The notes under the pieces: generated by a model
The model's input: only the letters and a program-made list of their open reading frames with translations
Told to the model about the DNA's origin: nothing
Databases searched by the model: none
DNA from: Candidatus Methylomirabilia bacterium
Lineage (GTDB): Bacteria > Methylomirabilota > Methylomirabilia > Rokubacteriales > CSP1-6
Assembly: GCA_046758385.1 (NCBI GenBank)
Contig: JBHIAB010000001.1
Location: forward strand, 2,608 to 66,607
Direction of reading: 5' to 3'
Length of the DNA: 64,000 bases
In this document: positions 44,436 through 64,000 of the stretch, piece after piece
How positions within the stretch are numbered: position 1 is the stretch's first letter
Layout of the letters: every line of letters begins with the position of its first letter
Position numbers and translations under genes: made by a program

Positions 44436-44458
44436 GGGTCTTCGCCCCTTCGCACATT

Positions 44459-44916: not shown

Positions 44917-45780
44917 TCACATGGCGACTCTGGCTGAGGTCTTCAGGATGATCTGCCGAGAGACCTGAGTGCCTGGGACGACCGGAATAGTGACCACGCG
45001 GGTGACTGTCGTGGCCCCGGACGTGTGAGTGGCGCTCACCACGTCGACTCCGCCGGGGATTGTAAATCTAAAGGGCGCGTTGCCGTCGGTGGCCGTCTCT
45101 TTCGTATCGTTCAGGACTTGCTCGCCGTCTTGTGCCGAGAAGATTTCGACGGTCAGGCCATTCGGCTGGGGGATGTCGTTGACGATGACGGTCACGATCA
45201 GCGTGCTGGTAACCTGGACCGGTGACTGAGAGTTAGCCAGGCCGGGAGGTCTGACCGGGAATTCGATGTCGTCCCCCGTACCCAGCGCGCCGTCCGGCCC
45301 TGCGCTAATGATCTGCCCGGCCTGGTTTGTCTGCCCCTGGGTAGGGTCAGCCGTGTAGGAATATGGCCGACCCCAAGCGTCCACAAAGAGTTCGTTCGGG
45401 TCAAATTGGCCAAGGAGGTACGGGCCGCGCCACCCGGTGCCGACCCCGCCCACATGCTCGTTGGTACCGTCGGCCGTGTGGAAGGCCGGTTGGTTCCCCT
45501 GGACCAAAAGCTCGGATAAGGTCGTAGGCAGCCGTCCCATGTCCCCCAGGTAGCCGAACTTCCCTCTCTCCGGATTCCCCACGATCGCTCTGAAAATCTC
45601 TTCGATCTCGGTCCGGGTCGCCTCCTCGTTGGAGGACTGAAAGGCCTGGAACGCCAGCGGAGTGATGAGGGCAGCCAAGATGGCCACGACGGCGAGCCCG
45701 ATCACTATCTCGATCAGGGTGAAACCATGCCTTCGCCAGAAGGGGAAACCTCTCAACCACAAGATGGGCAAACGCATCAT
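44917..45780 (-). CDS. type II secretion/type IV filament pseudopilin, GspG-like (paralog 1)
   Basis: Prepilin N-terminus ...RRHG|FTLIEIVIGLAVVAILAALITP (Glu+5). GspG-domain motifs WRGPYL, DAWGRPYSY, SAGPDGALGTGDDIEF. Confidence 0.7.
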   Translation of the reverse strand: MMRLPILWLRGFPFWRRHGFTLIEIVIGLAVVAILAALITPLAFQAFQSSNEEATRTEIEEIFRAIVGNPERGKFGYLGDMGRLPTTLSELLVQGNQPAFHTADGTNEHVGGVGTGWRGPYLLGQFDPNELFVDAWGRPYSYTADPTQGQTNQAGQIISAGPDGALGTGDDIEFPVRPPGLANSQSPVQVTSTLIVTVIVNDIPQPNGLTVEIFSAQDGEQVLNDTKETATDGNAPFRFTIPGGVDVVSATHTSGATTVTRVVTIPVVPGTQVSRQIILKTSARVAM

Positions 45781-45785
45781 TCCCT

Positions 45786-46622
45786 TCAATCCGGAATTGC
45801 GCACGGGTTCGCGGTGACCGAGACAACGGCACCGGTCAACATCCGGACCTCCTTGAGGACCGACTGTCCAGCGTGGACCGGCACGATGACGGTGCGGGCG
45901 ACGGTGCTGCACGGCCCACCCCCGCCGCCCCCCTGTCCGGTGTGGGCGACCACGAGGGCGTGTAGCCCATGGGTCACGTTCTCGAACACGAAGCCGTCAA
46001 ACCTCAAACCACCCGGCAGGTGCTTCCGGGTGGGAGTGACAGCCTGCTCTCCGTCAAGCGGCGAGTAAAGTTTCGCCGTAGCGCCCAGCGGGCCTGGGAT
46101 CTGATTTCCGAGGACTGAGACGAACAGCCTCCCCGTGGTGGGCGGCGCGTGAAGGGGGAACACGATGTCATCCGTCGTTCCCGAGACGCCGTCCGGCCCC
46201 AGGCTGATGATCTGGCCATTTTGAAAATCGAAGGGCCGACCCCAGGAGTCCAGGAAGAGGTCGGCGGTGGAGAAGAAGCTTTTCAGATATGGGCCTCGCC
46301 AGCCGGTCCCGAGCTTCCCGACGTGCTCGATGCCGCCGTCGGCCGTGTGGAAGGCGAGTTGATTGCCCTGTTCGACGAGCTCGGAAAGGCTCGTGGGCAG
46401 CCGCCCCATGTCCCCCAGGTAGCCGAACTCGCCCTGGGCGGGATTCCCAAAGATGGCCCGGAAGATCTCTTCTGCCTTCTCTTGCGTCTCTCGCTCCCTG
46501 TCGGCTTCGACGAGGCCGAAGAGGTTCGGGGCCATGAGCCCTATCACGGCGGCCAACACAGCAAGAACGATGACCACCTCGATGAGGGTGAACCCCTGAG
46601 AACGATCTCTTGGCTGCTTCAT
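45786..46622 (-). CDS. pseudopilin, GspG-like (paralog 2)
   Basis: MKQPRDRSQG|FTLIEVVIVLAVLA; WRGPYL, DSWGRPFDF, SLGPDGVSGTTDDIVFP. Gly-rich C-terminus. Confidence 0.7.
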   Translation of the reverse strand: MKQPRDRSQGFTLIEVVIVLAVLAAVIGLMAPNLFGLVEADRERETQEKAEEIFRAIFGNPAQGEFGYLGDMGRLPTSLSELVEQGNQLAFHTADGGIEHVGKLGTGWRGPYLKSFFSTADLFLDSWGRPFDFQNGQIISLGPDGVSGTTDDIVFPLHAPPTTGRLFVSVLGNQIPGPLGATAKLYSPLDGEQAVTPTRKHLPGGLRFDGFVFENVTHGLHALVVAHTGQGGGGGGPCSTVARTVIVPVHAGQSVLKEVRMLTGAVVSVTANPCAIPD

Positions 46623-48364
46623 GGCTGGAGAGGCGGATTCAGAACGCATGAGAACGTGATGGTTGGGCGCCCGCTGATCCTGTTCGGCTTGGGCTTCTTC
46701 GGCTTCTTGCCCTTCTTATGGTCGTCATCATCGTCGTCGTCGTGTCCTTTCCCATGCCCACCACTCGAGGACGCGTTTTCCGCTAGGACGACGCCGGTGA
46801 TGGTGGGGCGGCCGCTGATACGGATCCGCCCATGCGCGGCGACGAGTCCGGTGAGAGGTTTGCTGGAGCTGATCTTGATCTCGTCGCCGGCCACCAACAG
46901 CGTATCGGTGAGGTGGGCGGTCATTGTGGGGCGTCCCGAGACTTTGATGTCTCCTGTGGCGAGTACAGTGACCCTCCACGATAACGCGCCGCTCCCCGCG
47001 CGACCCGAAATCTTGGCGTCCCCCTCGAAGAAATAGGTTCCATCGACGGCGGTCTTGCCGCTGAACGTCCACTTGGCAGGGTGCCCCGGCCGATATTTCC
47101 AGCCCTGGAACTTCTGTCCTTTGTGCAACGTTGCGAGGTGCTTCGGCGGGTCGTCGCCGTCGAAGACCTCCCCATTGGATTTCAGGTGAAACACCTGCCC
47201 GACGGGAAGATCGACCTTGGCGGCGGTCAGGAAGTCAGCCGGGTCGATCGCGGGGATGTCTTTTGGATCGAATCCTCCTCCGACACCGGGCCCGCCTATA
47301 TCTACCTTCTTTGAAGCCGAGAACTTCCCGCTGGCAGTAGCGTCCCCGGCGATCGACACGCGATCACGAATCTTGAGATCTCCATTCGCGTGGACGTTCC
47401 CACACTGTCCATTGATCGTTGCCCGGTCGTCGATCTTGAGATCCCCGTTCACCAGTATGGCGTCGGTCACGTTGAAGGCAATTAGCCCCACCGGGATCTT
47501 GACGTCGAGCCGGTTGACGATGTTCGACTTCAGGGCCACGTGCAAGGCTTCTGTCAGGGGGCGCCCGCCGAACTCGATCTCGGCGAACCTGACCCCCGCG
47601 GGCACAGAATCGAAGACGATGGTGACTTCGGATCCGTCGGGCCCCACCACCGTGGTCGGCTGACTGACGAGACTCACCTGCTGGCCGTCCTCCGGGAAGA
47701 AGAGGGTCGCGGTGACGTTCTTCGCGGGGTTCTTGCTCCTGCCCACAGTGACGGTCAAGAAGAGATGCCCTGCGTCCTGAAATGGTTCGGAGCTGATGTC
47801 GTCGCCGGTATCGAACAGGCCGTCTGGCCCAGCGCTGGTGATCTGACCGATCCGCACGGTCAGGGAGACGCCTCCGGAGGTCGGATCGGTGGACGGTACC
47901 GTGACCTCGGGGCAGGTGTAGCGAAAGCGGTTGCCCCAGCCGTCCTCCAGATGCTCATTCGTGAAAATCATCTCCTTGAAGTACGGCCCCTGCCACCCCA
48001 TCCCGAGCCCGCCCCGATTCGCGGTGTCGAAAAGCGCGGTCGAAGGGTTGAAACTGGAATCGCAGAGGGTGTGAGGCCCTTGGAGATTGTTCAGTTCTTC
48101 CAGGCTCTTCGGGACCCGGCCCACGTCGCCGATGAAGCCGAAGGTTGCCTCCCCGGGGATCCCGGCGATCACCTCCACTAGCTTGGCCAGCTTGCGGCGG
48201 GTCGCTTCTTCGTTTGAGACCGTGATGTCGAGAACCAGCGGGAGCGCCAGGGCGGCCCCCGTCGCAGCGAGGGCGAGGAGCACCAGCAGCCCGAGGAGCG
48301 TGAAGCCCCTGGTCCCTACGCTTCCTCCCACCTCATCGGTCACCCGTCGAGAGCCAAGTTCCAC
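46619..48364 (-). CDS. giant pseudopilin-like protein (581 aa) with beta-helix-like repeat domain and acidic/basic tail
   Basis: N-term ...VGTRG|FTLLGLLVLLALAATGA (Gly not Glu at +5). WQGPYF, DGWGNRFRY, SAGPDGLFDTGDDIS GspG motifs. Then repeated GDLKI/ISGRPTIT units. Tail GHGKGHDDDDDDDHKKGKKPKKPKPN. Confidence 0.6.
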   Translation of the reverse strand: MELGSRRVTDEVGGSVGTRGFTLLGLLVLLALAATGAALALPLVLDITVSNEEATRRKLAKLVEVIAGIPGEATFGFIGDVGRVPKSLEELNNLQGPHTLCDSSFNPSTALFDTANRGGLGMGWQGPYFKEMIFTNEHLEDGWGNRFRYTCPEVTVPSTDPTSGGVSLTVRIGQITSAGPDGLFDTGDDISSEPFQDAGHLFLTVTVGRSKNPAKNVTATLFFPEDGQQVSLVSQPTTVVGPDGSEVTIVFDSVPAGVRFAEIEFGGRPLTEALHVALKSNIVNRLDVKIPVGLIAFNVTDAILVNGDLKIDDRATINGQCGNVHANGDLKIRDRVSIAGDATASGKFSASKKVDIGGPGVGGGFDPKDIPAIDPADFLTAAKVDLPVGQVFHLKSNGEVFDGDDPPKHLATLHKGQKFQGWKYRPGHPAKWTFSGKTAVDGTYFFEGDAKISGRAGSGALSWRVTVLATGDIKVSGRPTMTAHLTDTLLVAGDEIKISSSKPLTGLVAAHGRIRISGRPTITGVVLAENASSSGGHGKGHDDDDDDDHKKGKKPKKPKPNRISGRPTITFSCVLNPPLQP

Positions 48365-48432
48365 CGCGCATCTACGATCTTTCGCTGGCAGGCCCTATCT
48401 CCCCTGACCTTATCCTCTCCCCCGGTCTATCG

Positions 48433-49059
48433 CTATTTGAGCCGGCTGCAGATGTCATCTCCGCCTGGAGCCGGCCCCGAATCCGCCGGGGAGTCGGGAT
48501 CGGTGTCGATGGTCCCATCCGGCCCCGCCGAGCAGGTCCACACCACCTTCGCCGGAGAGTCTGCGGGATTCGCATTGCCGATGTTTACCAGATAGCGGTT
48601 CCCCCAGGGGTCCTCAGTGATTTTCTCCAGGTACGGCCCCCGCCAACGAAACCGACCGTTCGAGGAGTATGGGGTGGTCCCGGGGGCGTTCTTGATCAGA
48701 TGATCCTCAAGATCGTCGGCCTTTCCCGGTGTGAACCATTTGTTGTTACCGGGGGGGTTGTCGATAGGATCGTTGCCCGGCCCTTGGAGGATGTCGAAGT
48801 CAGGGGTTCCTGTGGTCCGCGTGCCATCCGTATAGATCGGGAAATGGCCCACGTCTCGGGTGAGGCGGATGATGCTCGCCCCGATGACCTTGACATCTCC
48901 CTCGGCCTTTTCTCTCTTGGCATCTTCCACGTAGCTGATCACCATAGGAGTGATCGCCCCCAGGAGCAGGCCGATCACCGCCAGGACGACGATCATCTCC
49001 AAGAGGCTGATTCCCAACTCCCCTCCGAACTTCCGTCTCCTCATGCTTATCAGCTCCAT
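48433..49059 (-). CDS. gspG: pseudopilin, closest to canonical GspG
   Basis: G|ISLLEMIVVLAVIGLLLGAITP; WRGPYLEKITEDPWGNRYLV; SAGPDGTIDTDPD. Confidence 0.7.
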   Translation of the reverse strand: MELISMRRRKFGGELGISLLEMIVVLAVIGLLLGAITPMVISYVEDAKREKAEGDVKVIGASIIRLTRDVGHFPIYTDGTRTTGTPDFDILQGPGNDPIDNPPGNNKWFTPGKADDLEDHLIKNAPGTTPYSSNGRFRWRGPYLEKITEDPWGNRYLVNIGNANPADSPAKVVWTCSAGPDGTIDTDPDSPADSGPAPGGDDICSRLK

Positions 49060-49094: not shown

Positions 49095-49832
49095 TCAGGC
49101 TCCGGGCAAGATCGCGCTCGCCCTTCCCAGGTTCTTCCCTATATCATCAGATCCGGCGGCGACACTTTCCCGGTTCAGAGGCGTCTCGAGCAAACGGTCT
49201 GGGCCAACGGAGAGGATCCAGCCGTTGCCCAACACCCGCATGATCTCTGATAATCCCGCCTGACCCCGAATCGCGACCTCGCCGCCAAAGATCAGGGGTA
49301 GAACATTGATGATGTAGGCCCGGTCCCATGGGTCACTGATGACGGGTTCCATGTAGGGGCCCTGCCAGTCGGGAAAGTCGACCACACTCGGCCTTCTGAC
49401 CAGGTAGTCGTTGATGTCCAGGGCAGTGCTCGGAGAAAAATTCACGCAGCTCCGGCCGATAAAAACGGTGGCATCGAAGAAGCCGATGTTCAAGAAGTCC
49501 GGGAGGGGCGTGCCGAGCGTCGGATCTATAGATGTCGGCACCCCAGATTGGAGGAAGCACGGTCCGGCCCCCCCGACCACCCCGATCTTTTCCTCCCCGG
49601 GCCACTGGCGCGTGTCCTGGCGGAACTTCATCATGGCGTTGGCAAGGGTCAACAGCTCTCTGGCAGCCTTGGTCTCCTTCGCCTCCTCGATCCGATCCAT
49701 CGTCATGGGAATGGCTACGGACGCGACGATCGTGGTCATCGCGACGACCGCCGTAGTCTCGTAGAGGGTCACCCCGCGGCAATCCCTGAAGCGGGCGAGA
49801 AGGAATCTGAGCGTTCTGACGATGCGTCTCAT
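49095..49832 (-). CDS. pseudopilin, GspG-like (paralog 5)
   Basis: ...DCRG|VTLYETTAVVAMTTIVASVAIP; WQGPYMEPVISDPWDRAYIINV; SVGPDRLL. Confidence 0.7.
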   Translation of the reverse strand: MRRIVRTLRFLLARFRDCRGVTLYETTAVVAMTTIVASVAIPMTMDRIEEAKETKAARELLTLANAMMKFRQDTRQWPGEEKIGVVGGAGPCFLQSGVPTSIDPTLGTPLPDFLNIGFFDATVFIGRSCVNFSPSTALDINDYLVRRPSVVDFPDWQGPYMEPVISDPWDRAYIINVLPLIFGGEVAIRGQAGLSEIMRVLGNGWILSVGPDRLLETPLNRESVAAGSDDIGKNLGRASAILPGA

Positions 49833-50029
49833 GGCGTTGTCTTCTCGACATCTCTAACTGAGAGCGCACTCAAATGCGTCACGATTATAGCTGCACCCAA
49901 AGAATGGGGCCGGGGGGAGAGGAAGCGATGCCGCTCCCCCCGGTAAAGTCCCCCAAACGCCTTCTTCCAAGAAGTACTGGCGCGGCGCTGCTAAGACCCG
50001 CCTCGTGTCTTATGCGCTACTACTTGTCC

Positions 50030-50701
50030 CTAGTTTTGGACGATCTTCTTGCCGAGGCTCCGGCCGATGTCGTTACCATTCGGATCCAAGTCCGAATCTA
50101 CAAAGTCGGTGGTCAGGGTCTGGTCGGATCCACCCGAGATGACCCACCCGTAGCCCAAGTAATTGTGGGCACCCAAGTCCTCGGCGTCAAACAACGGGCG
50201 GGGGTTAAAGATATAGGCACGGCCCCAGGGATCCGCGGTGATCGGATCCATGTAGGGTCCATTCCAGTTGGAATAGCCTGAGGGCCCAGTGCTCGCCGAC
50301 AAGTAGGTGTTGAGGTCCACGGGCGGAGCGCAGGTATTATTGCCAAGGCAGGTGTTGGGAGTCAGGGTGAGGTCTGTCAGAGCGGGCAGTGGGGCGCTGC
50401 CGCTAACGAGGAAGATTGTTTGGTCTGGGATCCCATCGTTGCCGCTGGTATCCATCTCGAGTTCCCCAGGCCACTTTCCCGTGTCGTTGAAGAAGCTAAA
50501 GGCAGCCTTGAAGATGGTTTCCGTCTCCTGCTTCGCGGCAGTGCCCTCGGCGCTCTGAATCTGCTGGAGGGCCACAGGCACCGCGACGGCGGCGATAATC
50601 CCCGCCATGGCGACCGCCGCCGTGATCTCGTAGAGGCTGATGCCTCGTGAATCCCTGAGGTGCCTCAGCAACGCCTTGAACATTCTGGCCATCCGTCCCA
50701 T
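50030..50701 (-). CDS. pseudopilin, GspG-like (paralog 6)
   Basis: ...DSRG|ISLYEITAAVAMAGIIAAVAVP; WNGPYMDPITADPWGRAYIF. RBS GGAGGG 7 nt upstream of ATG 50701. Confidence 0.7.
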   Translation of the reverse strand: MGRMARMFKALLRHLRDSRGISLYEITAAVAMAGIIAAVAVPVALQQIQSAEGTAAKQETETIFKAAFSFFNDTGKWPGELEMDTSGNDGIPDQTIFLVSGSAPLPALTDLTLTPNTCLGNNTCAPPVDLNTYLSASTGPSGYSNWNGPYMDPITADPWGRAYIFNPRPLFDAEDLGAHNYLGYGWVISGGSDQTLTTDFVDSDLDPNGNDIGRSLGKKIVQN

Positions 50702-50753
50702 CTTCTCACCCTCCTTGTCTCGAGAGCTTCTCTCGAGATGTTATGGGTTTGCG

Positions 50754-51524
50754 TTAACTGACGCCAGACTGAACCTTCTCAATCCGCTTGCCAAGATTTT
50801 GCCCGACATCGTCTGTCGCAGGTGCGAGCACGGAGTCGGTCAGCCTTGTCTGGAGCAGCCGATCCGGCCCCACACTGAGGACCCAGGCATATCCCAGATC
50901 CCCCCCGGTCTCGATGGCCCCGGTAACGGCGTCCGGCGTGCCCGCGGCCCCGACACCGGCTGTGATCGCCTCGGCGAACATCAAGGGGAGGACATTGATG
51001 ACGTACGCCTGATTCCAGGGGTCAGCCGTAATGGGCTCCATGTAGGGACCCTGCCAGCTGGGGTAATCCACCGGGTTAGGCTTTCTGACCAGGTAGTCGT
51101 TGATGTTCAGGGCATTGGTGTGGCTGAAGGTCGCGCAGAGAGATGCCTGAGGCAGAAAGTCGCCGGTATCGATCGTTCCGATCTCAGCGCGCGTCAGCGT
51201 GGGAAGAAGCGCGCTCGTCTGTGGATCACTTCCTGGCCTCCCCGTCTGGAGGAAGCACGATGTGCCATCGGTCCTGATCTCCACCTCGCCGGGCATCCGG
51301 CCTGTGTCCTCGAAGAAGCTCGCGATAGCTTTGGTGATGATGGTCACTTCCTGGGCGGCCTTGGCACTCTTGGCTGCCTCTATCTTGTCCAGCGCCACCG
51401 GCAGAGCCACCGCCGCGAGGATGGCGGTCATGGCGACGACCGCCGTGGTCTCGTAAAGCGTGACCCCGCGGACATCCTTGAGGTGTCGGATAAGACCCCT
51501 GAGCAATCTCGTTACGGGCTTCAT
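50754..51524 (-). CDS. pseudopilin, GspG-like (paralog 7, promoter-proximal)
   Basis: Start chosen at MKPVTRLL (51524), preceded by GGAGG and the sigma-54 promoter. ...DVRG|VTLYETTAVVAMTAILAAVALP; WQGPYMEPITADPWNQAYVINV; SVGPDRLL. Confidence 0.7.
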   Translation of the reverse strand: MKPVTRLLRGLIRHLKDVRGVTLYETTAVVAMTAILAAVALPVALDKIEAAKSAKAAQEVTIITKAIASFFEDTGRMPGEVEIRTDGTSCFLQTGRPGSDPQTSALLPTLTRAEIGTIDTGDFLPQASLCATFSHTNALNINDYLVRKPNPVDYPSWQGPYMEPITADPWNQAYVINVLPLMFAEAITAGVGAAGTPDAVTGAIETGGDLGYAWVLSVGPDRLLQTRLTDSVLAPATDDVGQNLGKRIEKVQSGVS

Positions 51525-51555
51525 GTCCTTTGTCCTCCGCCGGTTGAGGCAGATA

Positions 51556-51571
51556 GCAATCATCGGGCCAG
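51556..51571 (-). promoter_or_regulatory. sigma-54 (RpoN) -24/-12 promoter
   Basis: Minus-strand reading CTGGCCCGATGATTGCT against consensus TGGCACG-N4-TTGCW. GG..GC spacing exactly 12. About 20-nt leader with GGAGG before ATG 51524. Confidence 0.5.
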
Positions 51572-51663
51572 CGTTAAGTGCTTGATTTCTTGGGGAAAAC
51601 GCCTCGAACAATAAGAGGAGAAAGCTACAAAATTTGGGAGTTCCCTACAAATCTTGAGGATCA

Positions 51664-52604: not shown

Positions 52605-52638
52605 GTTTGGATTCTTCCGGGTTCGACGTGGCTGCTGT

Positions 52639-52689
52639 CCTTCCCCCTCACCCTCGCCCTCTCCCCCAAAGGACCCAAAGGGGAGAGGG
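52639..52689. repeat. GC-rich palindromic intergenic repeat, copy 1 (CCCTCACCC..GCCCTCTCCCC-loop-GGGGAGAGGG)
   Basis: Perfect 10-bp inverted repeat with 13-nt loop, preceded by conserved CCCCTCACCCTCGCCCTCTCCC. Confidence 0.6.
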
Positions 52690-52705
52690 AACTCTGTCGA
52701 GGAGG

Positions 52706-56071: not shown

Positions 56072-56638
56072 TCAACGCTCGGCCTCGAAGATGGGAATGG
56101 CCTCTCCCTCGAGCTCGATTCGACGGCGCCGGCCAGCCCGTTCCAGCACCACCCCGTCGGGACGGATCTCCACGACCCGCTCCTCCCCGAGCCGCTCTCC
56201 CTCGCTCAAGAGACGGCCATCGATGGAGGCCACTTTCTCTGAGCCCGAGATGATGACAGCCTTCACGGTGTAGGAAGGAAGCGGGGCGGGCGGAGGCGGG
56301 GGAGGCAACGGCTTGGCGACGGGACTCTTGGCACTCTTGGGGGCACGGAGGGCCCGCTCCTCCTCAGCCGTCAGGAACGGATCTCGTCCCCAAGTCCCCT
56401 CGAACCGCTTGAGCCACAATGCGTAGTCATCCCTGGCAAGGATGGCGACCGCAGTGCGAGAGGGAGTGGAGCTAGGTCCGGGCTCGTCAAGCCTTGCCGG
56501 TGCTTGAGCAACTGGCCGCCGGGCCGGAGACCGCCCCCTGAACCTTTTTGTGAGGGGCGAGGTGAAGAAGGCCCACACCATCGTTGCCAGCAGCAGGACC
56601 GTAATGACGATGCGCCGGATCTCCACTACTTCCCCCAC
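56072..56638 (-). CDS. PilP/GspC-like secretin-interacting protein
   Basis: 188 aa. N-terminal TM, Pro-rich linker (PPPPPPAP). C-terminal beta-domain YTVKAVIISGSEKVASIDGRLLSEGERLGEERVVEIRPDGVVL. Confidence 0.45.
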   Translation of the reverse strand: MGEVVEIRRIVITVLLLATMVWAFFTSPLTKRFRGRSPARRPVAQAPARLDEPGPSSTPSRTAVAILARDDYALWLKRFEGTWGRDPFLTAEEERALRAPKSAKSPVAKPLPPPPPPAPLPSYTVKAVIISGSEKVASIDGRLLSEGERLGEERVVEIRPDGVVLERAGRRRRIELEGEAIPIFEAER

Positions 56639-57270
56639 CGGAAGGTCCTGAGTTGCATCTCCGTACCGAGCTGGCCGTCTTCGTGCTGCACCTGCACGGA
56701 TTCCACTGCCACATACATGGAAAGGCTGCGGAGGCCTTCGAGAAACCGTACGAGATGGCGATAGCGATGAACCGCCCTCAGCCGGATGATCAAGGGGCTG
56801 GCCGTGAGTCCACGGGGCACTCTGAAGGATGAAGATCGTGGACGTTCAGAGCGTGAGGGACCCCGGGACCGACGCCCGCGAGATGCTTCCCCATCGCTTG
56901 GGGGGCTTTGAAGGTTGAGGCTGACGAGTTGCATGCCGGCCGAGCGAGCCAGATCTGCCACGGCCTCCAGAGCGCTGGGGAGAGCCTGCTCGGGAGGGAA
57001 GCGATCTCGCAGGCGGGCCTCCAACTGCTTCCAGAGCTTCCGCTCCTCCTCACCGACGGGTGGCACCGAACGTTGCTGCTCACGCACCACTCGGCGCTCT
57101 GTCTCCCCACGGGCTAATTGGGCCTTGAGCATCCTGATCTCTCGATACTTTGGGGCCACGAGTCCCAGGTATCCCCCGACCGCAAGGAGGCCGAGAAGCC
57201 CCATCACCATCGCGGCCTGTGCCTTGAAGGGCAAGCGCTGGAAATTGGGAAGCTGGGGTAGCTGAGGCAC
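56626..57270 (-). CDS. PilO/GspM-like inner-membrane assembly protein
   Basis: 214 aa. Single N-terminal TM, coiled coil, periplasmic domain. Position between PilMN-like and PilP-like genes. Confidence 0.45.
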   Translation of the reverse strand: MPQLPQLPNFQRLPFKAQAAMVMGLLGLLAVGGYLGLVAPKYREIRMLKAQLARGETERRVVREQQRSVPPVGEEERKLWKQLEARLRDRFPPEQALPSALEAVADLARSAGMQLVSLNLQSPPSDGEASRGRRSRGPSRSERPRSSSFRVPRGLTASPLIIRLRAVHRYRHLVRFLEGLRSLSMYVAVESVQVQHEDGQLGTEMQLRTFRWGK

Positions 57271-58830
57271 TTACCGCAGCTCTTTCAAGTGAAGTGTCAG
57301 TTCGAAGGCGAGGCGGTCCTCCTCGGCCGTGACCATCTCTTGGGTCGATTGGGGTGGCTGGGCCTTGCGCCGGAGGTCTCTCGCCCGCCTCCCCTCTTTG
57401 CTCCGGCGCTGGCTCGTCTGGACCTCGGGCCTCAGTGCCCCGTACCTCACCTCGAAAAAGAACGGCGAATCCCCGAGGCCGAAGTAGAAGCGGTTGAACT
57501 CTGATTGAGCCCTGGCGATATCGGCGAACTCCACGGCCCCTGTGAGCCTCATACGAGTGCCAGCTTTATCCCTGGACAGGGCCAGCTCTTCCAGGCGCAG
57601 ATGATCCGGGGCCAGGCGGCTTATCTCCTTCAGGACATCGGCCAGCGGCGGCCCCCCCAAGGGGTCTTGGGTGAGCAGGTGGATTCGCTGGCGCTGGATC
57701 TCCCGCTCCCGCAGGATCCGTTCAACCCCCCTGACCCTGGCCAGATGTGTCTGTTTCGCCGCGGTCCTGACTGCCAGGGCCCGGCGATAACTCGCCACCT
57801 CCCAAGCAGCACCCCAGAAGGAATAGCCCAAAGAAAGGACAAGCAGCGCCGCAACGACCCCGCCTACCGTCTTCAACAGCCGTGACTGCCGCGCTTCGAC
57901 AATGGATCGAGGCAGGAGGTTAGCGGTCTCGCGAGAGGACAGCATCGCCACCCCCAGAGGGAGGAGAAAGGCCCCTGCGGGAACACCCGCCAGCTCCTCG
58001 GTCTCCGGCGGAAGGACTCCCCGAATCGCCTCGTTGAGGTTGAACACCGACACTCCGGGGAGACGGGCTTCGACCTCGGGAAGGACCCGCTCGAAATTGG
58101 CGTCTACGCTCCCCACCACCACGGCGCCGACGGGCTCTCCCTTCGAGGCGACCGTGTATTGGCGGACTGTTCGCTGAAATTCGGTCACGAACCACTCGCT
58201 GAGCTGGAGACCGGGAACCGCGAGCTGAGGGATCTCTCGCGTCAGCCGGATCGTCCCCCTTTCGACCACGGTGACGGTAAGCGCGCGGAACCCCCAGTGA
58301 ACGACCGCCGTGGGGCGGTCCAACGAGAATGGCGAGAGAGAGCGCGCCACCTCCAGTGAAGCCAACGGTGCCGTGGTCACCAAGTGAGGGATGAGACGGG
58401 CGTCCAGCAGGGCGGACAGGGGTTGGTCCACCTCCTTCCGCGGGACCGCAACCACCAGCACCTCATCCTTCCGGACCGCGTCCTCGGTCTGCCCGAGTGT
58501 CTGGTGCCCCACGAGCAGATTCCCCCCGAGCTCCCGAGCCAGCCCTCGTTCCAGGTAGAGCTGTCGCTCCCTCCCGGTCATGGAGGGAAGGACCTCGATG
58601 CGGTGGGTCGAGTCAGGAGGAGACAAAACCAGATGGGCCTGCCGCCCCGTGATCCCTCCCTCGACCATCAGGGACTTGAGGAGGGCTCCGTCCAAGGTCC
58701 CCGCGGGGACCGCTCTGGCCGTGGCCTTGAGGATGGTGGGTGGATCAGTGCTGCGATCCACCTCCACGGCGATCAACCGCGTGGCGGCGATCTCCAGCCC
58801 GATGGTTCGGTGTGAGGTCAGCACCGCCAT
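57271..58830 (-). CDS. PilM-PilN-like fusion (GspL-like) assembly protein
   Basis: 519 aa. N-terminal actin-like PilM segment (IGLEIAATRLIAVEV). Internal TM (VGGVVAALLVLSLGYSFWGAAW). PilN-like C-terminus. Confidence 0.55.
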   Translation of the reverse strand: MAVLTSHRTIGLEIAATRLIAVEVDRSTDPPTILKATARAVPAGTLDGALLKSLMVEGGITGRQAHLVLSPPDSTHRIEVLPSMTGRERQLYLERGLARELGGNLLVGHQTLGQTEDAVRKDEVLVVAVPRKEVDQPLSALLDARLIPHLVTTAPLASLEVARSLSPFSLDRPTAVVHWGFRALTVTVVERGTIRLTREIPQLAVPGLQLSEWFVTEFQRTVRQYTVASKGEPVGAVVVGSVDANFERVLPEVEARLPGVSVFNLNEAIRGVLPPETEELAGVPAGAFLLPLGVAMLSSRETANLLPRSIVEARQSRLLKTVGGVVAALLVLSLGYSFWGAAWEVASYRRALAVRTAAKQTHLARVRGVERILREREIQRQRIHLLTQDPLGGPPLADVLKEISRLAPDHLRLEELALSRDKAGTRMRLTGAVEFADIARAQSEFNRFYFGLGDSPFFFEVRYGALRPEVQTSQRRSKEGRRARDLRRKAQPPQSTQEMVTAEEDRLAFELTLHLKELR

Positions 58831-58840
58831 TACCTCAGTC

Positions 58841-60058
58841 TCATCGGCCCGTGTATCTCATTTTCCCCAGGATTGAATAGATGGGGAGGTAGACGGACAG
58901 GATGGAGCCCAAGACGACGACGGCCATGACGGCAATGACGGCGGGCTCGATGAGGGCAAAGAGCCGTCGAACGGTGTCGGGTACTTCACGGTCGTAGTAC
59001 TGAGAGATCTTGGCCAGACTGTCGCCCAGGTTGCCGGACATCTCCCCGGTGGAGACCATTCTGACCACGAGGGGCGGAAACTCTCCGGAGAGCCGGAGGG
59101 CGTCGGTAAAGGACATCCCTGCCACCACTCGCTCACGTACCCGGGCCACCCCTCGGGCGATCACTGCGTTCCCCACGACCCGCTCCAGGACCATCAGGGT
59201 TAGCGCGAACTCCACTCCCGCTCGGTGAAGGGTTTCCAGGAAGTGCGCAAAGCGGCTCATGGCAATCTTCTGAAGGAGACCCCCGACGACTGGCACCTGC
59301 AGTTTGACGCGATCGACGAGAAGCCGGCCAGCCGGCACCCTCACCGCCAGTCGGACGGCCACGACAAGTCCGAAGATCCCGAGGAAGACAAGCATCCAGT
59401 TGGCTGCCATGAAATCGCCAATCGCCAGGACGATCTTGGTGGGAAGAGGCATGGGGGCCCCGGTCTTGGCGAGGAGCCCCTTGAATTTTGGCAGGACGAA
59501 CGTAAAGAGGACCGTCGCCAGGATCCCCAGGGCCGTCATGAGAAGGGCGGGGTAGATGCTGGCCTGGCGGAGCTGGCTCGCCAACCCCTCCTGCCACTCC
59601 AGGGAGGCCACCAGCTCCATGAGCACCGCGTCGAGCTTTCCAGAGGCCTCGCCAGCACGGACGGTGGCCACATAGACCTCTGAGAATACCTTGGGCAGGC
59701 TCGCCATGGCCTCCGAGAGCATGACCCCTCTCTCCAGCTTCTGAACGAGGATCTCCGTGACGGTCCTGACGCGCGGGCTAGCCTCTCTGGCGTACTCCTT
59801 GAGAGCAGGGAGCAGCGGGACCCCGGCGGACAAGATGGTGCCCAGATGTACGGTGAAGAGAATGAGCTCCCTGCGGGAGATTCGACCCACGGACTCTCGA
59901 GGCTGCCGCGTCGCTCTCGGGGCCCGCTCCTGGACGGAGATGACGTAGAGCCCCCTGTCCGAAAGCATGGAATCCACCTGATCTTCGGTGGGGGCGTCCA
60001 TCACCCCGGTCACGGTCTTCCCCATCTCATCCTTGGCTCTGTAAGCAAACTGCGGCAT
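58841..60058 (-). CDS. gspF: type II secretion/type IV pilus platform protein GspF/PilC
   Basis: Start at MPQFAYRAKDEMGK (60058). Duplicated T2SSF domains, three TM segments. Confidence 0.85.
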   Translation of the reverse strand: MPQFAYRAKDEMGKTVTGVMDAPTEDQVDSMLSDRGLYVISVQERAPRATRQPRESVGRISRRELILFTVHLGTILSAGVPLLPALKEYAREASPRVRTVTEILVQKLERGVMLSEAMASLPKVFSEVYVATVRAGEASGKLDAVLMELVASLEWQEGLASQLRQASIYPALLMTALGILATVLFTFVLPKFKGLLAKTGAPMPLPTKIVLAIGDFMAANWMLVFLGIFGLVVAVRLAVRVPAGRLLVDRVKLQVPVVGGLLQKIAMSRFAHFLETLHRAGVEFALTLMVLERVVGNAVIARGVARVRERVVAGMSFTDALRLSGEFPPLVVRMVSTGEMSGNLGDSLAKISQYYDREVPDTVRRLFALIEPAVIAVMAVVVLGSILSVYLPIYSILGKMRYTGR

Positions 60059-60069
60059 CTTCCGGATTC

Positions 60070-61737
60070 CTACTCGATGGAATGCGTGACCCGGATGATC
60101 TCGTCCAGGGTCGTGATCCCGGCCGCCACCTTTTTCATGCCGTCCTCGAGCATGGTCTCCATCCCTTGCTCCCGGGCGACTTTCAGGAGAAGTCCCGGCT
60201 CGGCTTTTTGGGTAATGAGCTGACCGACCTGCGGGCTCGCCAGGAGAATCTCGAAGATCGCAATCCGGCCCCGGTATCCGGTGAAGTTGCATGCCCCACA
60301 CCCCTTGCCCTCGTAGAAGGTCGCAATCGCCTGGGCCGTCGGTCCCGCTCGGGCCAACAGCTCATCGTCGGGAGTGACCTCGGCCTTGCAGTTCCGGCAG
60401 ATGACCCGGACTAGACGCTGGGCAAGAACGGCGAGGAGGGAGGATGCCACGAGGAAGGGCTCGACTCCCATCTCCAGCATGCGGGGAATCGTTCCGACGG
60501 CATCGTTGGTGTGAAACGTGCTGAAGACGAGGTGTCCGGTCAGGGCAGCCCGCACCGTGGTCTCGACCGTTTCCAGATCTCGCATCTCCCCCACGAGGAT
60601 GATGTCCGGGTCGTGGCGAAGAACCGAGCGAAGTCCCGACGCGAAGGTCAGCCCCGCCCGCGGGTTGATCTGAGATTGCCGGATCAGCGGGATCTCGTAC
60701 TCCACTGGATCCTCGAGGGTGATGATGTTGACCTCCAGCGAGTTGATGTGCGAGAGGGCCGAGTAGAGGGTGGTGGTTTTCCCCGAGCCGGTCGGCCCAG
60801 TCACAAGGATCAAGCCATAGGGCTTTTGAATAAGCCGCTTGAAGATGGCCAGGTGCTCCTGTGAAAACCCGAGCTGCTCGAGGCCAAAGCTTCGGCTCTT
60901 ATCGAGGACACGGATGACCAGGTTTTCCCCGTGGATGGTGGGAAACGTCGAGACTCTCAGGTCCAACCGATGGGGACCCTCGTAGTACTGAATGCGGCCA
61001 TCCTGAGGGACGCGGCTCTCGGAGATGTTCAGATTGGCAAGGATTTTCACGCGGGTGACGATCCCCGAGTGAAGAGAGCTGGGAATGGTCGGACCCGAAT
61101 AGAGGATCCCGTCGAGTCGGAATCGCGTGCGAACCGTCCTCTCGTCGGGTTCGATATGGATATCGGTGGCACCGTCCTGGGCGGCCTTCCTGAATAGGTC
61201 GTCAACGACTTGAACAATGGGAGTCTCGACGCTCACGCTGCCCGCTGCTCCCGCCGCGCGACCCTCCGCCTGCTGGATTTCCTCTTCCGTGGCCCCCTTG
61301 CGTCCCGCCTGCCCGGAATAGAATTTGTTGATCACCTGACGAATCTGGCTTTCCTTGGCAGACACCACCTTGATGAAGCGCTGGGTAGTCCGCTGAAGCT
61401 CGTCGATCGCGGCCACATCAAAAATATTGGCCATGGCCACCGTCAGGGAGAACTCCTCCTGGGAGATCGGGACCAACGTGTGTTTCTTTGCGAAGGTGTC
61501 TGGGACGAGCGCAAACAGGTCGGGGTCAAAGTCATGTTTGTCGAGGTCGATATGGGGAATGCCGGCCTGCTCGGCCAGGGCCTGGGAGAGGTCGTCGGCC
61601 GTGGCAAAGCCCATGCGGATCAGCACCTCTCCGAACAGCTCACCCGAGGTCCGCGCCTCACGCAGGGTCGCGTCACGCTGCTCTTTCGTTATCACCCCGG
61701 TCTCGACCAGGTACTCCCCAAGCGGCTTCCGAGCCAT
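60070..61737 (-). CDS. gspE: type II secretion/MSHA-type assembly ATPase GspE/MshE with N-terminal MshEN (c-di-GMP-binding) domain
   Basis: 555 aa. Walker A GPTGSGKTTTLY, Asp box, Walker B, tetracysteine CRNCKAEV...GKGCGAC. N-term has two MshEN-type motifs (PLGEYLVETGVITKEQRDATLREA and LFGEVLIRMGFATADDLSQALAEQ). Confidence 0.9.
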   Translation of the reverse strand: MARKPLGEYLVETGVITKEQRDATLREARTSGELFGEVLIRMGFATADDLSQALAEQAGIPHIDLDKHDFDPDLFALVPDTFAKKHTLVPISQEEFSLTVAMANIFDVAAIDELQRTTQRFIKVVSAKESQIRQVINKFYSGQAGRKGATEEEIQQAEGRAAGAAGSVSVETPIVQVVDDLFRKAAQDGATDIHIEPDERTVRTRFRLDGILYSGPTIPSSLHSGIVTRVKILANLNISESRVPQDGRIQYYEGPHRLDLRVSTFPTIHGENLVIRVLDKSRSFGLEQLGFSQEHLAIFKRLIQKPYGLILVTGPTGSGKTTTLYSALSHINSLEVNIITLEDPVEYEIPLIRQSQINPRAGLTFASGLRSVLRHDPDIILVGEMRDLETVETTVRAALTGHLVFSTFHTNDAVGTIPRMLEMGVEPFLVASSLLAVLAQRLVRVICRNCKAEVTPDDELLARAGPTAQAIATFYEGKGCGACNFTGYRGRIAIFEILLASPQVGQLITQKAEPGLLLKVAREQGMETMLEDGMKKVAAGITTLDEIIRVTHSIE

Positions 61738-61840
61738 CTGGACCGTTCCTCTCTGTCACGTCGGTTAGGAGGGGTTCTGCGTTCAAACACACCATTATAC
61801 CAGGAATTTTAGCAACTTGAGCGATCCAGAACCCGGCGCC

Positions 61841-63007
61841 TCAGCGGCCGCGGGCGAGAAACCGAAGGCGCTCTCTCACTTTCGCGACCAGGGGGGCATG
61901 GCGCTCAGAGGCCAACTCGACGAACTTCTGGTAGTGCCGCTCTGCTTTCTCCCTGTGCCCGCGACGTTCCCAGAGGAGCGCGACGTTGTAATGGGCCTCG
62001 GCCAGCGTGGGATCGTACCGGAGCGCCTCCCCGAACGCCTCCAGCGCATCGTTGTGGCGTTCGGCCAGCAAGAAGATGATCCCGAGGTTGGTGTGGCTCT
62101 CCACGTTGGCGGGGTTGATCCGAAGGGCCTGCTTGAAGAGGTCGATGGCCTCCCGATACTGTCCCTTGCGGTAACGAATCACGCCCAGGTTGTTCAGGGC
62201 CTTCTCGTACTTCGGGTCCAGGGCGAGAGCTTGCTCAAAGGCCTCGATGGCCTGATCCAGCCGCCCGCTCTCTTTCAACGCCACCCCCAGGTTATTGAAT
62301 GCCGCAGGGTTGCGAGGATCCGCCGCAATCGACTTCTGGTACTCCTCGACCGCCCGGTCGAGCTGGCCCGTCCGCTGAGAGCGGAGTGCGGCCGCAAAGA
62401 ACTTGGTAGCCCCCTTCTCCTCATCGGGTCGAATCTCCACGATGGTCGGCGAGGACGGCTTCCTGGCCGGGCGCGGACGAGCCATGGGAGGAGGCGGCGG
62501 AGGTGCCTCGACTTTCGCCGGGCTGGGAGCGGGAGGCGGGGCCTTCTCGGCCTCCTTGGCCTCCGGGAGCGCCGCCTTCACTCGGCTAAGGGCGACCTCC
62601 CGGCGAGGGTCGGTGCGGGGGGTCGACCTGGCAGGTGGTTGCTTGACCGGGGGCCGTGGTTTCTCCGCCAGTGCGGCCTCGAGAGCCGCCCGAACCTCGG
62701 GGATCGTGGTGCCCTCCTCCGACTTCGGGGCCGGGGCAGGGGCCTGTGCCAGCGGTGTCTTTGATTCGACGATCAGGAAAGGCTGCGCGGGAGCCCTCAC
62801 GCGCGCGGGCTTCGGTCGAATCAGATAAAGCCCGCCGATCAGGAGCAGGCCGACCAGACCCATGCTGCCTACCAGGAGGACGAGCCTCCGCGCGGATGCT
62901 CCGCCCCAGCCCGGGAGCGCCGACAATGGCCGCTTGACAGAGAATGGAGGCAGTCTCCGAACGGCTCCCTGCTGCGCCCTCTTCAGCGCCTCGGTGATCA
63001 GGCTCAC
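61841..63007 (-). CDS. TPR-repeat membrane protein (MshN/PilF-like)
   Basis: 388 aa. N-terminal TM, Pro/Ala-rich linker. At least 5 TPR units (AAFNNLGVALKESGRLDQAIEAFEQALALDP...). Confidence 0.65.
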   Translation of the reverse strand: MSLITEALKRAQQGAVRRLPPFSVKRPLSALPGWGGASARRLVLLVGSMGLVGLLLIGGLYLIRPKPARVRAPAQPFLIVESKTPLAQAPAPAPKSEEGTTIPEVRAALEAALAEKPRPPVKQPPARSTPRTDPRREVALSRVKAALPEAKEAEKAPPPAPSPAKVEAPPPPPPMARPRPARKPSSPTIVEIRPDEEKGATKFFAAALRSQRTGQLDRAVEEYQKSIAADPRNPAAFNNLGVALKESGRLDQAIEAFEQALALDPKYEKALNNLGVIRYRKGQYREAIDLFKQALRINPANVESHTNLGIIFLLAERHNDALEAFGEALRYDPTLAEAHYNVALLWERRGHREKAERHYQKFVELASERHAPLVAKVRERLRFLARGR

Positions 63008-64000
63008 GGCCGGTGGGCGTTTCCGGGGCTGTCGACGACCCGTACGACCCTGACCGCTTCAAACCCCATCTCTGCCGTGAGCCGATCCCGGGTCTCGTTG
63101 GCCTCAGCCAGCTCCAGGAAGCGCCCCACGAGAACCCCGTAGTTCGGCTCGCCACGCTCACCAGCCCTGACGGCGACGAACGGACGATAGCCACGCACGG
63201 AGAGCCGCTGCTCCACCTCCCGTGCCTGGTCCTCGGTGGGATATGCCCCGACCAGGAGCGTAAACGGTTGGTCACCCTTGCCCCGCTCTGCATCGGACGA
63301 GGGCTCGACGCCCGGCGAAGACGTGGAGGAGGCAGGGCCCCAATCCCACCCCTTGGATGCCAGCCACCCGGCCGCGAACGCAAGGACGACCATGCCCGCG
63401 ATCCAAAGGGGGAGGGCCCGCCGCGGCACCGGGCCGGCCGGCCCCACACTGACCTCGTGGCTCAGGCTCTTGATGGCCTTGTGCGCCCGTCCCCGGGTGA
63501 TGTGGGTGGAGTGGTCCACGAACCCTTGAAGGAGGGCCCGATCGCAGGCCAGGTTGATCAGGCGAGGGACGCCACGCGAGAAGCGGTAGATAGCCTCAAG
63601 GGCTCCCGACGAGAGCGTCACCTCCCCGCTCCCGCCGGCCACCATTAGCCGATGATAGATGTACTGGCAGGTCTCCTGGAATGGGAGCGGCCGAAGCTGG
63701 CAGCGGACGGACACCCGCTGGTTGAGCTGCTTGAGCTCGGGCGTGGCCAAGAGATCCAGGAGGCCCAGCTGGCCCACCAGGATGATCTGGATGAGCTTCT
63801 CCCGCTCGGTCTCCAGGTTGGAGAGGAGCCGGATCTGTTCCAGGAGCGTCGGCGAGAGGTCCTGGGATTCGTCGATGATGAGGACCGCGTTCTGGCCTTC
63901 CGTGAGTGACCGAATGAGGAAATCATTGAGCTCGTCGATCAGCTCCTTCTTCGTGCTGCCGCTGCCAGTGAGGCCGAAGTCATGAAGCACGGCGCGAAGC
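63004..64000 (-). CDS. ExeA/GspA/MshM-like AAA ATPase with C-terminal SPOR domain; 5' (N-terminal) part beyond window end
   Basis: LIIDESQDLSPTLLEQIRLLSNLETEREKLIQIILVGQLGL...RGVPRLINLACDRALL ExeA blocks (Walker B onward). Walker A not in window. TM, then SPOR-like LLVGAYPTEDQAREVEQRLSVRGYRPFVAV. Confidence 0.7.
   Translation of the reverse strand, partial: LRAVLHDFGLTGSGSTKKELIDELNDFLIRSLTEGQNAVLIIDESQDLSPTLLEQIRLLSNLETEREKLIQIILVGQLGLLDLLATPELKQLNQRVSVRCQLRPLPFQETCQYIYHRLMVAGGSGEVTLSSGALEAIYRFSRGVPRLINLACDRALLQGFVDHSTHITRGRAHKAIKSLSHEVSVGPAGPVPRRALPLWIAGMVVLAFAAGWLASKGWDWGPASSTSSPGVEPSSDAERGKGDQPFTLLVGAYPTEDQAREVEQRLSVRGYRPFVAVRAGERGEPNYGVLVGRFLELAEANETRDRLTAEMGFEAVRVVRVVDSPGNAHRP

Follow-up and report, generated by a model that had tools for sequence, protein, structure and literature searches.

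The pseudopilin array

The window, that is, the whole stretch of 64,000 nucleotides analyzed here, derives from a Candidatus Methylomirabilia MAG and contains seven pseudopilin-like genes between positions 44917 and 51611. One of them (46619..48364, minus strand) starts with GTG and encodes, according to the ORF list, 581 amino acids plus a stop; its product is a trimodular pseudopilin that lacks the glutamate at position +5 (Glu5). A first-pass annotation of this DNA had placed the ORF at exactly these coordinates, without giving the strand, and inside a pseudopilin array, as found here. The protein is identical to NCBI MFQ5827573.1 (hypothetical protein, Candidatus Methylomirabilia bacterium), and its best homologs reach E-values of 1e-194 for the N-terminal half and 1e-111 for the solenoid half. 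Because both halves have many homologs and the identical protein is held at NCBI, the ORF can be taken as a real gene and not a chance ORF. Based on structure prediction, the protein consists of three modules: a pilin core (residues 21-185), a beta-sandwich (195-292) and a beta-solenoid (296-581). The N-half and the C-module were modeled separately; a combined alignment misplaced PilX-type sequences onto the N-terminal half.

The other six pseudopilins of the array all match T2SSG, and three of the six match N_methyl as well (Pfam, NCBIfam). Directly upstream lies a GspG-like pseudopilin of 208 aa with Glu5 (48433..49059, minus strand; TIGR01710 65.7 bits, plus T2SSG). It is the best GspG match of the array, its position is kept in relatives, and it is likely the major subunit. 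Two paralogs lie downstream, each with a GspG-like core, a beta-sandwich and Glu5, and each matching N_methyl and T2SSG. The first (45786..46649, minus strand), listed as an ORF of 287 aa, is about 30% identical to the N-half of the 581-residue protein; its start is probably the ATG at 46622, which overlaps the stop of the preceding gene as ATGA (ccATGAag). The second (44917..45912, minus strand), listed as 331 aa, shares 38% identity with the N-half across 224 aa and probably starts later than listed. Three more GspG-like genes (49095..51611, minus strand; T2SSG and TIGR01710 matches) encode Glu5-bearing pseudopilins of 245, 223 and 285 aa with the N-termini GVTLYE, GISLYE and GVTLYE, respectively.

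Further upstream and in the same orientation, Pfam and NCBIfam matches indicate filament machinery (56072..63990, minus strand). These genes encode an AAA_22+SPOR protein, a TPR protein, a PilB/GspE-family ATPase with a c-di-GMP-binding MshEN domain, a GspF/PilC platform protein, a PilM-like protein of 519 aa, a PilO-like protein and a weakly matching GspC-like protein, none of which matched NCBIfam up to an equivalog cut-off. Neither a prepilin peptidase (peptidase A24) nor a secretin was found among the window ORFs scanned.

The Glu5-less pilin module

Alignment to homologs places a class-III-type leader peptide at residues 1-20 (48305..48364, minus strand), with Gly20 as its last residue. 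The leader ends in ...VGTRG and is followed by FTLLGLLVLLALAATGAALALP; as in a class-III signal peptide, the Gly at -1 and the hydrophobic tract align in 50 homologs, where ...VGTRG-FTLLG lines up with G-F(A/T)L(I/L)x (the hyphen marks the end of the leader). The pLDDT of residues 1-20 is low, as expected for a leader. The alignment further shows that the +5 position, which is Glu in normal pilins and in the definition of the type IV pilin superfamily, is occupied by Gly25 (codon 48290..48292, minus strand). The class-III-like leader with Gly at +5 that the first-pass annotation had described can thus be read directly in the ORF as G-FTLLG. Among the seven pseudopilins of the array, only the 581-residue protein lacks Glu5, and the other six have E at this position.

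The leader is followed by the alpha1 helix (residues 21-67) and a GspG-like pseudopilin core that extends to residue ~185 (47810..48304, minus strand) and carries the motifs GWxGPY, DxWG and SAGPDG..DD. Together they show the pilin fold of a long N-terminal helix on an antiparallel sheet. A CnaB/transthyretin-like beta-sandwich occupies residues ~195-292 (47489..47782, minus strand). The pilin part aligns with the GspG-like paralogs and not with the GspK (T2SSK) or PilX_N families. Specifically, the 581-residue protein had no match to PilX_N, T2SSK, N_methyl (PF07963/TIGR02532) or T2SSG (PF08334) in Pfam and NCBIfam at E <= 0.1, and a sequence search of the PDB with the N-half yielded nothing significant.

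The N-half (residues 1-295) belongs to a family of stand-alone pseudopilins, with 52 homologs of 266-321 aa (E to 1e-194); the longest has 321 aa, save for one distant paralog of 399 aa. At +5, these proteins have Gly (28), Ala (14), other residues (4) or, in 2 orthologs, Glu. Judging from these sequences, the loss of Glu5 is conserved in the family. The genes always occur in a cassette of the order GspG-like / Glu5-less / paralog / paralog, which is found in Methylomirabilota, Vicinamibacterales/Acidobacteriota and deltaproteobacterial MAGs. The arrangement of the cap class, in which a sole Glu5-less subunit is encoded together with partner minor pilins, is present in the window, and the cassette is kept in relatives. 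The first-pass annotation had held that Gly at +5 abolishes filament incorporation. This was too strong, since GspK and PilX, minor pilins that naturally lack Glu5, have been described to enter the filament at its tip (bioRxiv 10.64898/2026.02.12.705559).

The C-terminal solenoid and its charged loop

The C-module (residues 296-581; 46622..47479, minus strand) is predicted to form a beta-solenoid of ~286 aa of the ComZ/PilX type, which resembles ice-binding proteins (pLDDT 92.6, pTM 0.89). A structure model had been proposed as a check on the suspected beta-helix, with a disordered, low-complexity C-terminal region as the outcome that would speak against it; the region is instead folded with high confidence. 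It had also been described as ~400 aa of repeats following the GspG core. The beta-helical nature stands, while the extent does not, as a sandwich of ~100 aa comes first and the solenoid covers the remaining ~286 aa. In Foldseek, ComZ was the top match of the C-module and the only one with E <= 0.001. Overall, the best matches among solved structures are ice-binding proteins and this Thermus tip pilin, with fold matches that span 170-216 residues. The solenoid is of the triangular, ice-binding-protein-like kind found in the ComZ/PilX solenoid minor pilins, and the pectate-lyase-like fold suggested earlier is wrong, having been rejected on scores.

The repeats noted in the first pass fit this assignment. 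GDLKI occurs in two copies (residues 307 and 328), as stated, and SGRPT(I/M)T occurs three times (residues 476, 517 and 564) and not twice. The latter is the usual rung motif of the family, with SGNPT in relatives. A recent duplication as the source of the SGRPTIT repeats is excluded, since SGNPT-type rungs are the family norm.

At the sequence level, 102 homologs of the solenoid were collected (E to 1e-111); PilX_N is present in 72 of them, DUF7305 in 27 and DUF4900 in 9. An exhaustive search extended the relatives to at least 1000 representative clusters, with 694 representatives at E <= 1e-10. Identity to the PilX_N-type relatives is 30-51%, and the nearest known relatives share 43-51%. The solenoid itself matches DUF7305 weakly (21.4 bits against a cut-off of 27 bits), and a literature search on DUF7305 found nothing. 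A PDB sequence search with the solenoid half gave no significant match; a weak match to ComZ (E 0.032) arose via the PilX_N region, which is absent from the 581-residue protein. In one canonical operon for type IVa pili (pilB-pilT-pilC-pilS-pilR-pilin-GspH-like-pilin-264aa-[P0010]-prepilin-peptidase), the slot of pilX is filled by the homolog P0010.

Alignment and pLDDT delimit a disordered charged insertion at residues ~530-559 (46688..46777, minus strand) with the sequence SSSGGHGKGH-D7-HKKGKKPKKPK, in which His, Asp7 and Lys/Pro-rich tracts follow one another. The first-pass annotation had taken it for a C-terminal tail, but 20 further residues, RISGRPTITFSCVLNPPLQP, follow as the last strands of the solenoid. 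The charged stretch is thus an insertion of ~20 aa ahead of the final rung, and it lengthens the loop to 33 aa, compared with a median of 13 in 101 homologs. The pLDDT of the loop is 52-64, its coding DNA has a 9-bp repeat as well as a short run of GAC/GAT, and the insertion is absent from the homologs P0003 and P0004. At the same site of the solenoid, the homolog P0292 has an unrelated low-complexity insert. Because the loop is lineage-specific and disordered, at a site that tolerates unrelated inserts, it is not a conserved functional site.

Proposed role and relation to known systems

Taken together, these features allow the 581-residue protein to be assigned, with moderate confidence, as the subunit that caps the tip of a T2SS/MSH-like type IV filament and displays the solenoid as a plug and/or adhesin. 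The central idea of the first-pass annotation, a beta-helix on a Glu5-less pseudopilin that acts as tip adhesin or cap, appears to hold because the solenoid fold is predicted confidently, ComZ is the best pilus-related match of solved structure, the relatives are of the PilX type and the loss of Glu5 is conserved in the family. In the proposed mechanism, the leader, alpha1 helix, GspG-like core and sandwich are the pilin module of a conserved family that lost Glu5. We infer that the protein is processed as a prepilin and that, as a Glu5-less subunit like GspK and PilX, it would only be able to enter the filament first, no other subunit being stacked above it. Assembly would therefore start from a priming complex of this subunit with the two Glu5-bearing downstream paralogs, and the subunit would end up at the distal position. 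Because the pilin part is not a homolog of GspK or PilX, the Glu5 argument is one by analogy. In one lineage, a PilX/ComZ-type beta-solenoid would have been excised and gained at the natural C-terminus of the subunit, with the pilin-fold parts of the donor left behind. Attached to the C-terminus of a cap subunit, the solenoid would therefore be exposed at the tip of the filament, where it would serve as a plug and/or as an adhesin for a putative ligand, and the Asp7/Lys-rich stretch would be a flexible surface loop with no established role. The solenoids of ComZ and PilX are inserted into the pilin sheet, which fixes them rigidly. The geometry may differ in the 581-residue protein, where the solenoid hangs from the C-terminus after the sandwich.

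It is rather unlikely that the protein is instead a modular pilin displayed on the shaft or side, or a non-assembling periplasmic or membrane-anchored protein, whose solenoid serves a purpose other than tip capping, for instance binding or cleaving polysaccharides, binding ice or minerals, or capturing DNA via the Lys-rich loop. Such a role would be compatible with the observations that the shaft is not strictly closed to modular pilins that have flexible linkers (PMC8179133) and that the relatives P0223 and P0250 carry the same solenoid module on Glu5-bearing GspJ/PilW-like N-termini. DNA binding of ComZ via lysines (PMC6561018) and the His, Asp7 and Lys/Pro-rich tracts of the loop point the same way. 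In contrast, the conserved Glu5 loss of the carrier family speaks for a place at the filament end, every one of the closest relatives by sequence is a minor pilin, and Pfam gave no match to DUF3494 or lyase families. Additionally, the charged loop is lineage-specific, disordered and located where the P0292 insert shows that insertions are tolerated.

The combination of the two halves is unique to this protein in the databases searched. The fused form is a singleton, present as one protein, one cluster member and one 68-kb contig of one MAG. Genome and metagenome contigs scanned with the 581-residue protein as the single query yielded no match, and profile scans with the N-half alignment yielded 53 loci with the solenoid module in none. 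The search of metagenome databases for the same architecture, which the first pass had recommended, thus produced no second case among the loci searched. That the protein unites two modules which are separate in every other genome searched had been missed at that stage. There is a small chance that the fusion is an artifact of metagenome assembly or a sequencing error, the true gene being a pseudopilin of ~295 aa and the solenoid DNA coming from a PilX-type gene elsewhere. The singleton status, the absence of the module from some 50 related loci and the length of the N-half homologs, all <=321 aa (n=52) except the distant 399-aa paralog, would fit such an artifact. The junctions speak against it. 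Both are in frame and lie exactly at domain boundaries, so that a chimera would require two precise in-frame joins. The N-half homologs stop at ...KIPVG(QGGKG), which is the exact start of the solenoid in the 581-residue protein. In PilX-type homologs, the solenoid is preceded by a median of 188 aa and followed by a median of 10 aa, the latter being the ...LQILSW strand that 96 of 101 homologs have; both are absent here, with no leftover of the donor PilX_N region or terminal strand. The stop codon of the module overlaps the ATG of the next syntenic gene as ATGA, synteny is intact on both flanks, and GC is uniform across the gene. The module is also only 43-51% identical to its nearest known relatives and is not a copy of a known co-assembled gene. 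A recent horizontal insertion was considered separately and rejected, as the GC content does not shift along the gene. Two genes separated by an unnoticed frameshift, a possibility raised in the first pass, are likewise excluded, since the ORF is unbroken and no alternative-frame end resembling ...QGGKG plus stop occurs at the junction. The fusion is clean and represents a single exchange of domains within an already known type of protein, not a new system. A bactofilin-like polymerizing domain in a cytoskeletal or self-assembling protein is highly improbable and was rejected on scores, as PF04519 reaches 18.4-21 bits, below its gathering cut-off of 27.9 bits, over ~40 of 286 residues, ComZ and ice-binding proteins match far better over 170-216 residues, and the protein has a class-III leader and a pilin operon context.

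Beta-solenoid tip pilins such as ComZ and cyanobacterial PilX have recently been recognized as the plug or adhesin of pili without PilY1. In the 581-residue protein, the same solenoid is cut out of the PilX scaffold and extends the C-terminal end of another pseudopilin without Glu5. Provided that the gene is authentic, the solenoid is a module that folds and works on its own, the otherwise uncharacterized Glu5-less family of ~295 aa is singled out as the one that supplies the filament cap, and a concrete construct becomes available for finding what the solenoid binds. No new kind of machine is revealed, and attention is drawn to a conserved, unstudied pseudopilin cassette of Methylomirabilota and Acidobacteriota. 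More tentatively, this cassette may represent an undescribed type of priming complex for type IV filaments, made entirely of GspG-derived paralogs with no homologs of GspH/I/J/K or FimU/PilV/W/X, and the 581-residue protein would then demonstrate, as an experiment of nature, that the PilX/ComZ solenoid is autonomous and can be transplanted as a working tip module to an unrelated cap subunit. The complex so envisaged would contain one GspG-like major subunit and three pseudopilins with a GspG core and a CnaB-like sandwich, the first of them Glu5-less.

Among known systems, the DUF3494 ice-binding proteins (IBP-1 fold) resemble the 581-residue protein in fold only; it has no Pfam or sequence match to DUF3494, and its pilin operon context gives no pointer to ice binding. 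The solenoids of ComZ and cyanobacterial PilX are described as tip-located (PMC6561018; bioRxiv 10.64898/2026.02.12.705559). ComZ, the competence-pilus pilin of Thermus thermophilus (PDB 6qvi) proposed to sit at the tip (PMC6561018), shares 12-18% sequence identity. The two differ in architecture, as the ~286-aa solenoid is C-terminal here, after the GspG-like core and beta-sandwich, and the returning strand is absent; the protein thus departs from the ComZ/PilX class in solenoid placement. For the PilX_N-type minor pilins (PF14341 with DUF7305/DUF4900), the solenoid is a true sequence homolog, but the 581-residue protein lacks the PilX_N region, uses an unrelated pilin scaffold and has the additional 20-aa charged loop. 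In the literature, these PilX pilins are caps without Glu5 in which the solenoid may take the place of PilY1 as plug or adhesin (bioRxiv 10.64898/2026.02.12.705559).

Like GspK, the tip pseudopilin of the T2SS, the protein is the sole Glu5-less member of its set, exceeds its partners in size owing to an added domain and has the genes of partner minor pseudopilins as neighbors. In GspK, the sheet harbors the extra domain as an alpha-helical insertion. Neither sequence nor HMM comparison shows similarity to GspK, and the partners are paralogs of the protein itself and not GspI/GspJ. Modular type IV pilins, which consist of an N-terminal pilin module and one or more C-terminal modules and are expected at the tip (Raynaud et al., 2021; PMC8179133), provide the remaining parallel. 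The 581-residue protein has this architecture, as do Streptococcus sanguinis PilB with its vWA module and CofB. It differs from them in that the grafted module comes from another class of minor pilins and is not a general adhesion or lectin domain, and in that the carrier is Glu5-less.

Array and machinery genes

The 581-aa gene (46619-48364) is a genuine ORF with a GTG start; it lies on the minus strand, which the first-pass annotation left unmentioned. Its product is identical to a hypothetical protein already deposited for a MAG of Candidatus Methylomirabilia. Seven pseudopilin-like genes share this strand between 44917 and 51611, and the 581-aa gene is the fifth among them. The leader and the Gly at the fifth position after cleavage (+5) reported by the first-pass annotation were confirmed (...VGTRG↓FTLLG, Gly25). 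The protein is alone among the seven array pseudopilins in lacking Glu at this position (Glu5), and processing at the leader by a prepilin peptidase is presumed. All six array neighbors match the T2SSG model, and each has its best score with the GspG model, below the cut-off. Three extra GspG-like genes (245, 223, and 285 aa; 49095-51611) possess atypical G↓(V/I)(T/S)LYE N-termini and do not match the N_methyl HMM.

The genes upstream of the array, in the same orientation, encode a HEPN/nucleotidyltransferase pair, a sigma-54 response regulator, and a PAS histidine kinase; proteins resembling GspC (weakly), PilO, and PilM (519 aa); a GspF/PilC platform protein and a PilB/GspE-family ATPase; and proteins of the TPR and AAA_22+SPOR types. 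No match of these genes attains an equivalog cut-off, and the system is accordingly classified from sequence as a divergent, T2SS/MSH-like type IV filament machine. Neither a secretin nor a prepilin peptidase was found in the window. The presence of an LptD gene shows the organism to be diderm. The assembly ATPase (60070-61737, minus strand) bears an N-terminal MshEN, or MshE-related, c-di-GMP-binding domain, so filament assembly is probably under c-di-GMP control. The 519-aa protein (57271-58830, minus strand) matches nothing in Pfam and PilM only weakly; its N-terminus and a hydrophobic segment mid-protein make it look like a PilM-PilN-type fusion.

Interspersed with the pilus genes are two complete pairs of HEPN and MNT-type nucleotidyltransferase genes (42584-43551 and 51664-52760) and a lone nucleotidyltransferase ORF of 83 aa (44459-44710). 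One of the pairs separates the first pseudopilin from the sigma-54 regulator. A 161-aa ORF (43995-44480, minus strand) encodes a hydrophobic N-terminal segment, after which a charged unit of ~33 aa (RETQELIVREAEGNRQLLQQMSREIQELITRETEA.RQLI) is tandemly repeated almost perfectly; it has no Pfam match.

The N-terminal half and its conserved cassette

The region after the GspG core, first described as a single repeat region of ~400 aa, instead comprises two distinct domains. By homology the protein divides cleanly into two halves, which were modeled one at a time, since aligning both families together misaligned them. The model of the N-terminal half (residues 1-295) has a pLDDT of 86.8 and an alpha1 helix of 47 residues. 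Homology searches with this half returned 52 proteins (E down to 1e-194, 44-67% identity), 50 of them close family members and nearly all of these 266-321 aa long, from Acidobacteriota/Vicinamibacterales, deltaproteobacterial, and unassigned MAGs. These relatives terminate in ...KIPVG(QGGKG) or ...P(I/L)(R/H/N), exactly at the point where the 581-aa protein runs on. Because the +5 residue in the family is Gly (28) or Ala (14), with Glu in two orthologues only, the loss of Glu5 is evidently a conserved family trait and no accident of the 581-aa gene.

Gene order around the family is invariant: a GspG-like gene of ~210 aa, the family gene, and paralogues of ~287 and ~270 aa. In the window these are located at 48433-49059, 46619-48364 (the 581-aa gene), 45786-46649, and 44917-45912; the last, listed as 331 aa, probably has a later start, near MMRLPILW...RRHGFTLIE. 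The three extra GspG-like genes lie upstream of this cassette. The cassette (44917-49059; also loci L001, L006, L007, and L008) occurs in Methylomirabilia, Vicinamibacterales/Acidobacteriota, and deltaproteobacterial MAGs. Its last three genes, the Glu5-less one of ~295 aa and two paralogues of ~270-290 aa, each encode a GspG core and a CnaB-like sandwich. No homologues of GspH/I/J/K or FimU/PilV/W/X were recognized in the cassette, which may be an undescribed minor-pseudopilin set.

The C-terminal solenoid and its relatives

The C-terminal module (residues 296-581) is confidently predicted to be a beta-solenoid with one flanking helix (pLDDT 92.6, pTM 0.89). With Foldseek, ComZ of Thermus thermophilus (PDB 6qvi) was the top-ranked and sole match at E <= 0.001. 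The SGRPT(I/M)T motif, thought to occur twice, is present in three copies and is the rung motif of the family's solenoid (SGNPT in relatives). Confidence is low only at residues ~530-559 (SSSGGHGKGH-D7-HKKGKKPKKPK). This charged stretch had been taken for the C-terminal end, but 20 residues (RISGRPTITFSCVLNPPLQP) follow it. It is an insertion of ~20 residues, predicted to be disordered, in the loop ahead of the last rung, which measures 33 aa against a homologue median of 13; its DNA is partly a short GAC/GAT run and a 9-bp repeat. In the distant homologue P0292 this site holds a Gly/Ser/Asn/Gln-rich insertion unrelated to it, so the site is permissive, and nothing points to a conserved function for the charged loop.

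A homology search with the module identified 102 proteins (E to 1e-111, 30-51% identity), typically 400-490 aa long, and an exhaustive profile search matched at least 1000 representative clusters, 694 at E <= 1e-10. An N-terminal PilX_N domain is present in 72 of the 102; other matches are to DUF7305 (27), DUF4900 (9), and, weakly, Bactofilin (28). A bactofilin-like polymer was rejected on scores. One homologue, P0010, holds the pilX position in a canonical type IVa pilus operon (pilB, pilT, pilC, pilS, pilR, pilin, GspH-like gene, pilin, 264-aa gene, P0010, prepilin peptidase), and near P0004 lie a gene for a prepilin peptidase and another PilX_N protein. The module also occurs on Glu5-bearing GspJ/PilW-like N-termini (P0223, P0250) and within a GspK-like protein of 1132 aa (P0293). 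It appears somewhat mobile, shuffled among minor-pilin scaffolds.

PilX-type homologues have a median of 188 residues ahead of the module, and 96 of 101 extend beyond the end of the 581-aa protein by a median of 10 (...PLQILSWGL, Trp near-invariant), a stretch that, from the published ComZ architecture, would be a strand returning to the pilin sheet. Since the 581-aa protein possesses neither flank, it carries the solenoid alone, as an excised module fused straight onto the end at which the members of a different pilin family naturally stop. The module is absent within 4-8 kb at all ~50 loci of the N-terminal family in genomes and metagenomes, and none of ~250 module-bearing proteins examined has a GspG-like/sandwich N-terminus. 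The combination is unique within the searched data.

A proposed modular cap pseudopilin

By analogy with GspK and PilX, the best-supported reading is that the 581-aa protein is a modular cap pseudopilin. A Glu5-less subunit would be assembled first and come to lie at the filament's distal end, with the two downstream-encoded Glu5-bearing paralogues beneath it in a putative priming trimer and the GspG-like 208-aa protein forming the shaft. The PilX/ComZ solenoid would have been added to the cap in this lineage and displayed at the tip as a plug and/or an adhesin for a presumed ligand. A rival explanation is that the solenoid acts away from the tip or has another biochemical role. It is unlikely that the gene is an assembly chimera. 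While it is a singleton MAG gene (alone in its 90% cluster and confined to one 68-kb contig), both joins are in-frame and domain-exact, and its stop codon, TGA, shares bases with the ATG that begins the following pseudopilin gene (ccATGAag, 46619-46625). Given this overlap, 46622 is the probable start (MKQPRDRSQGFTLIE...) of that downstream ORF (45786-46649, listed as 287 aa), implying translational coupling. GC content is uniform along the whole gene, and at the junction no trace of the ancestral ...QGGKG end survives in another frame; together with the overlap, these features indicate a well-integrated gene.

To the specialist the domain transplant is neat and not astonishing. The conserved and unstudied cassette of GspG-derived paralogues, the first one Glu5-less, is the more interesting by-product. 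The protein falls within the modular pilins as defined previously (PMC8179133), and in its working it may be likened to the ComZ/PilX solenoid tip pilins. In ComZ, a DNA-binding protein and proposed competence pilus cap, an ice-binding-protein-like solenoid is described as interrupting a GspK-like pilin fold between its penultimate and last strands (PMC6561018). According to a 2026 preprint, all cyanobacterial PilX homologues share this solenoid, which is proposed to replace PilY1 as a tip plug; the preprint also restates that PilX lacks Glu5 and hence caps the filament (bioRxiv 10.64898/2026.02.12.705559). In contrast to these tip pilins, the 581-aa protein is without a PilX_N/GspK-like scaffold, and its solenoid is appended rather than inserted.
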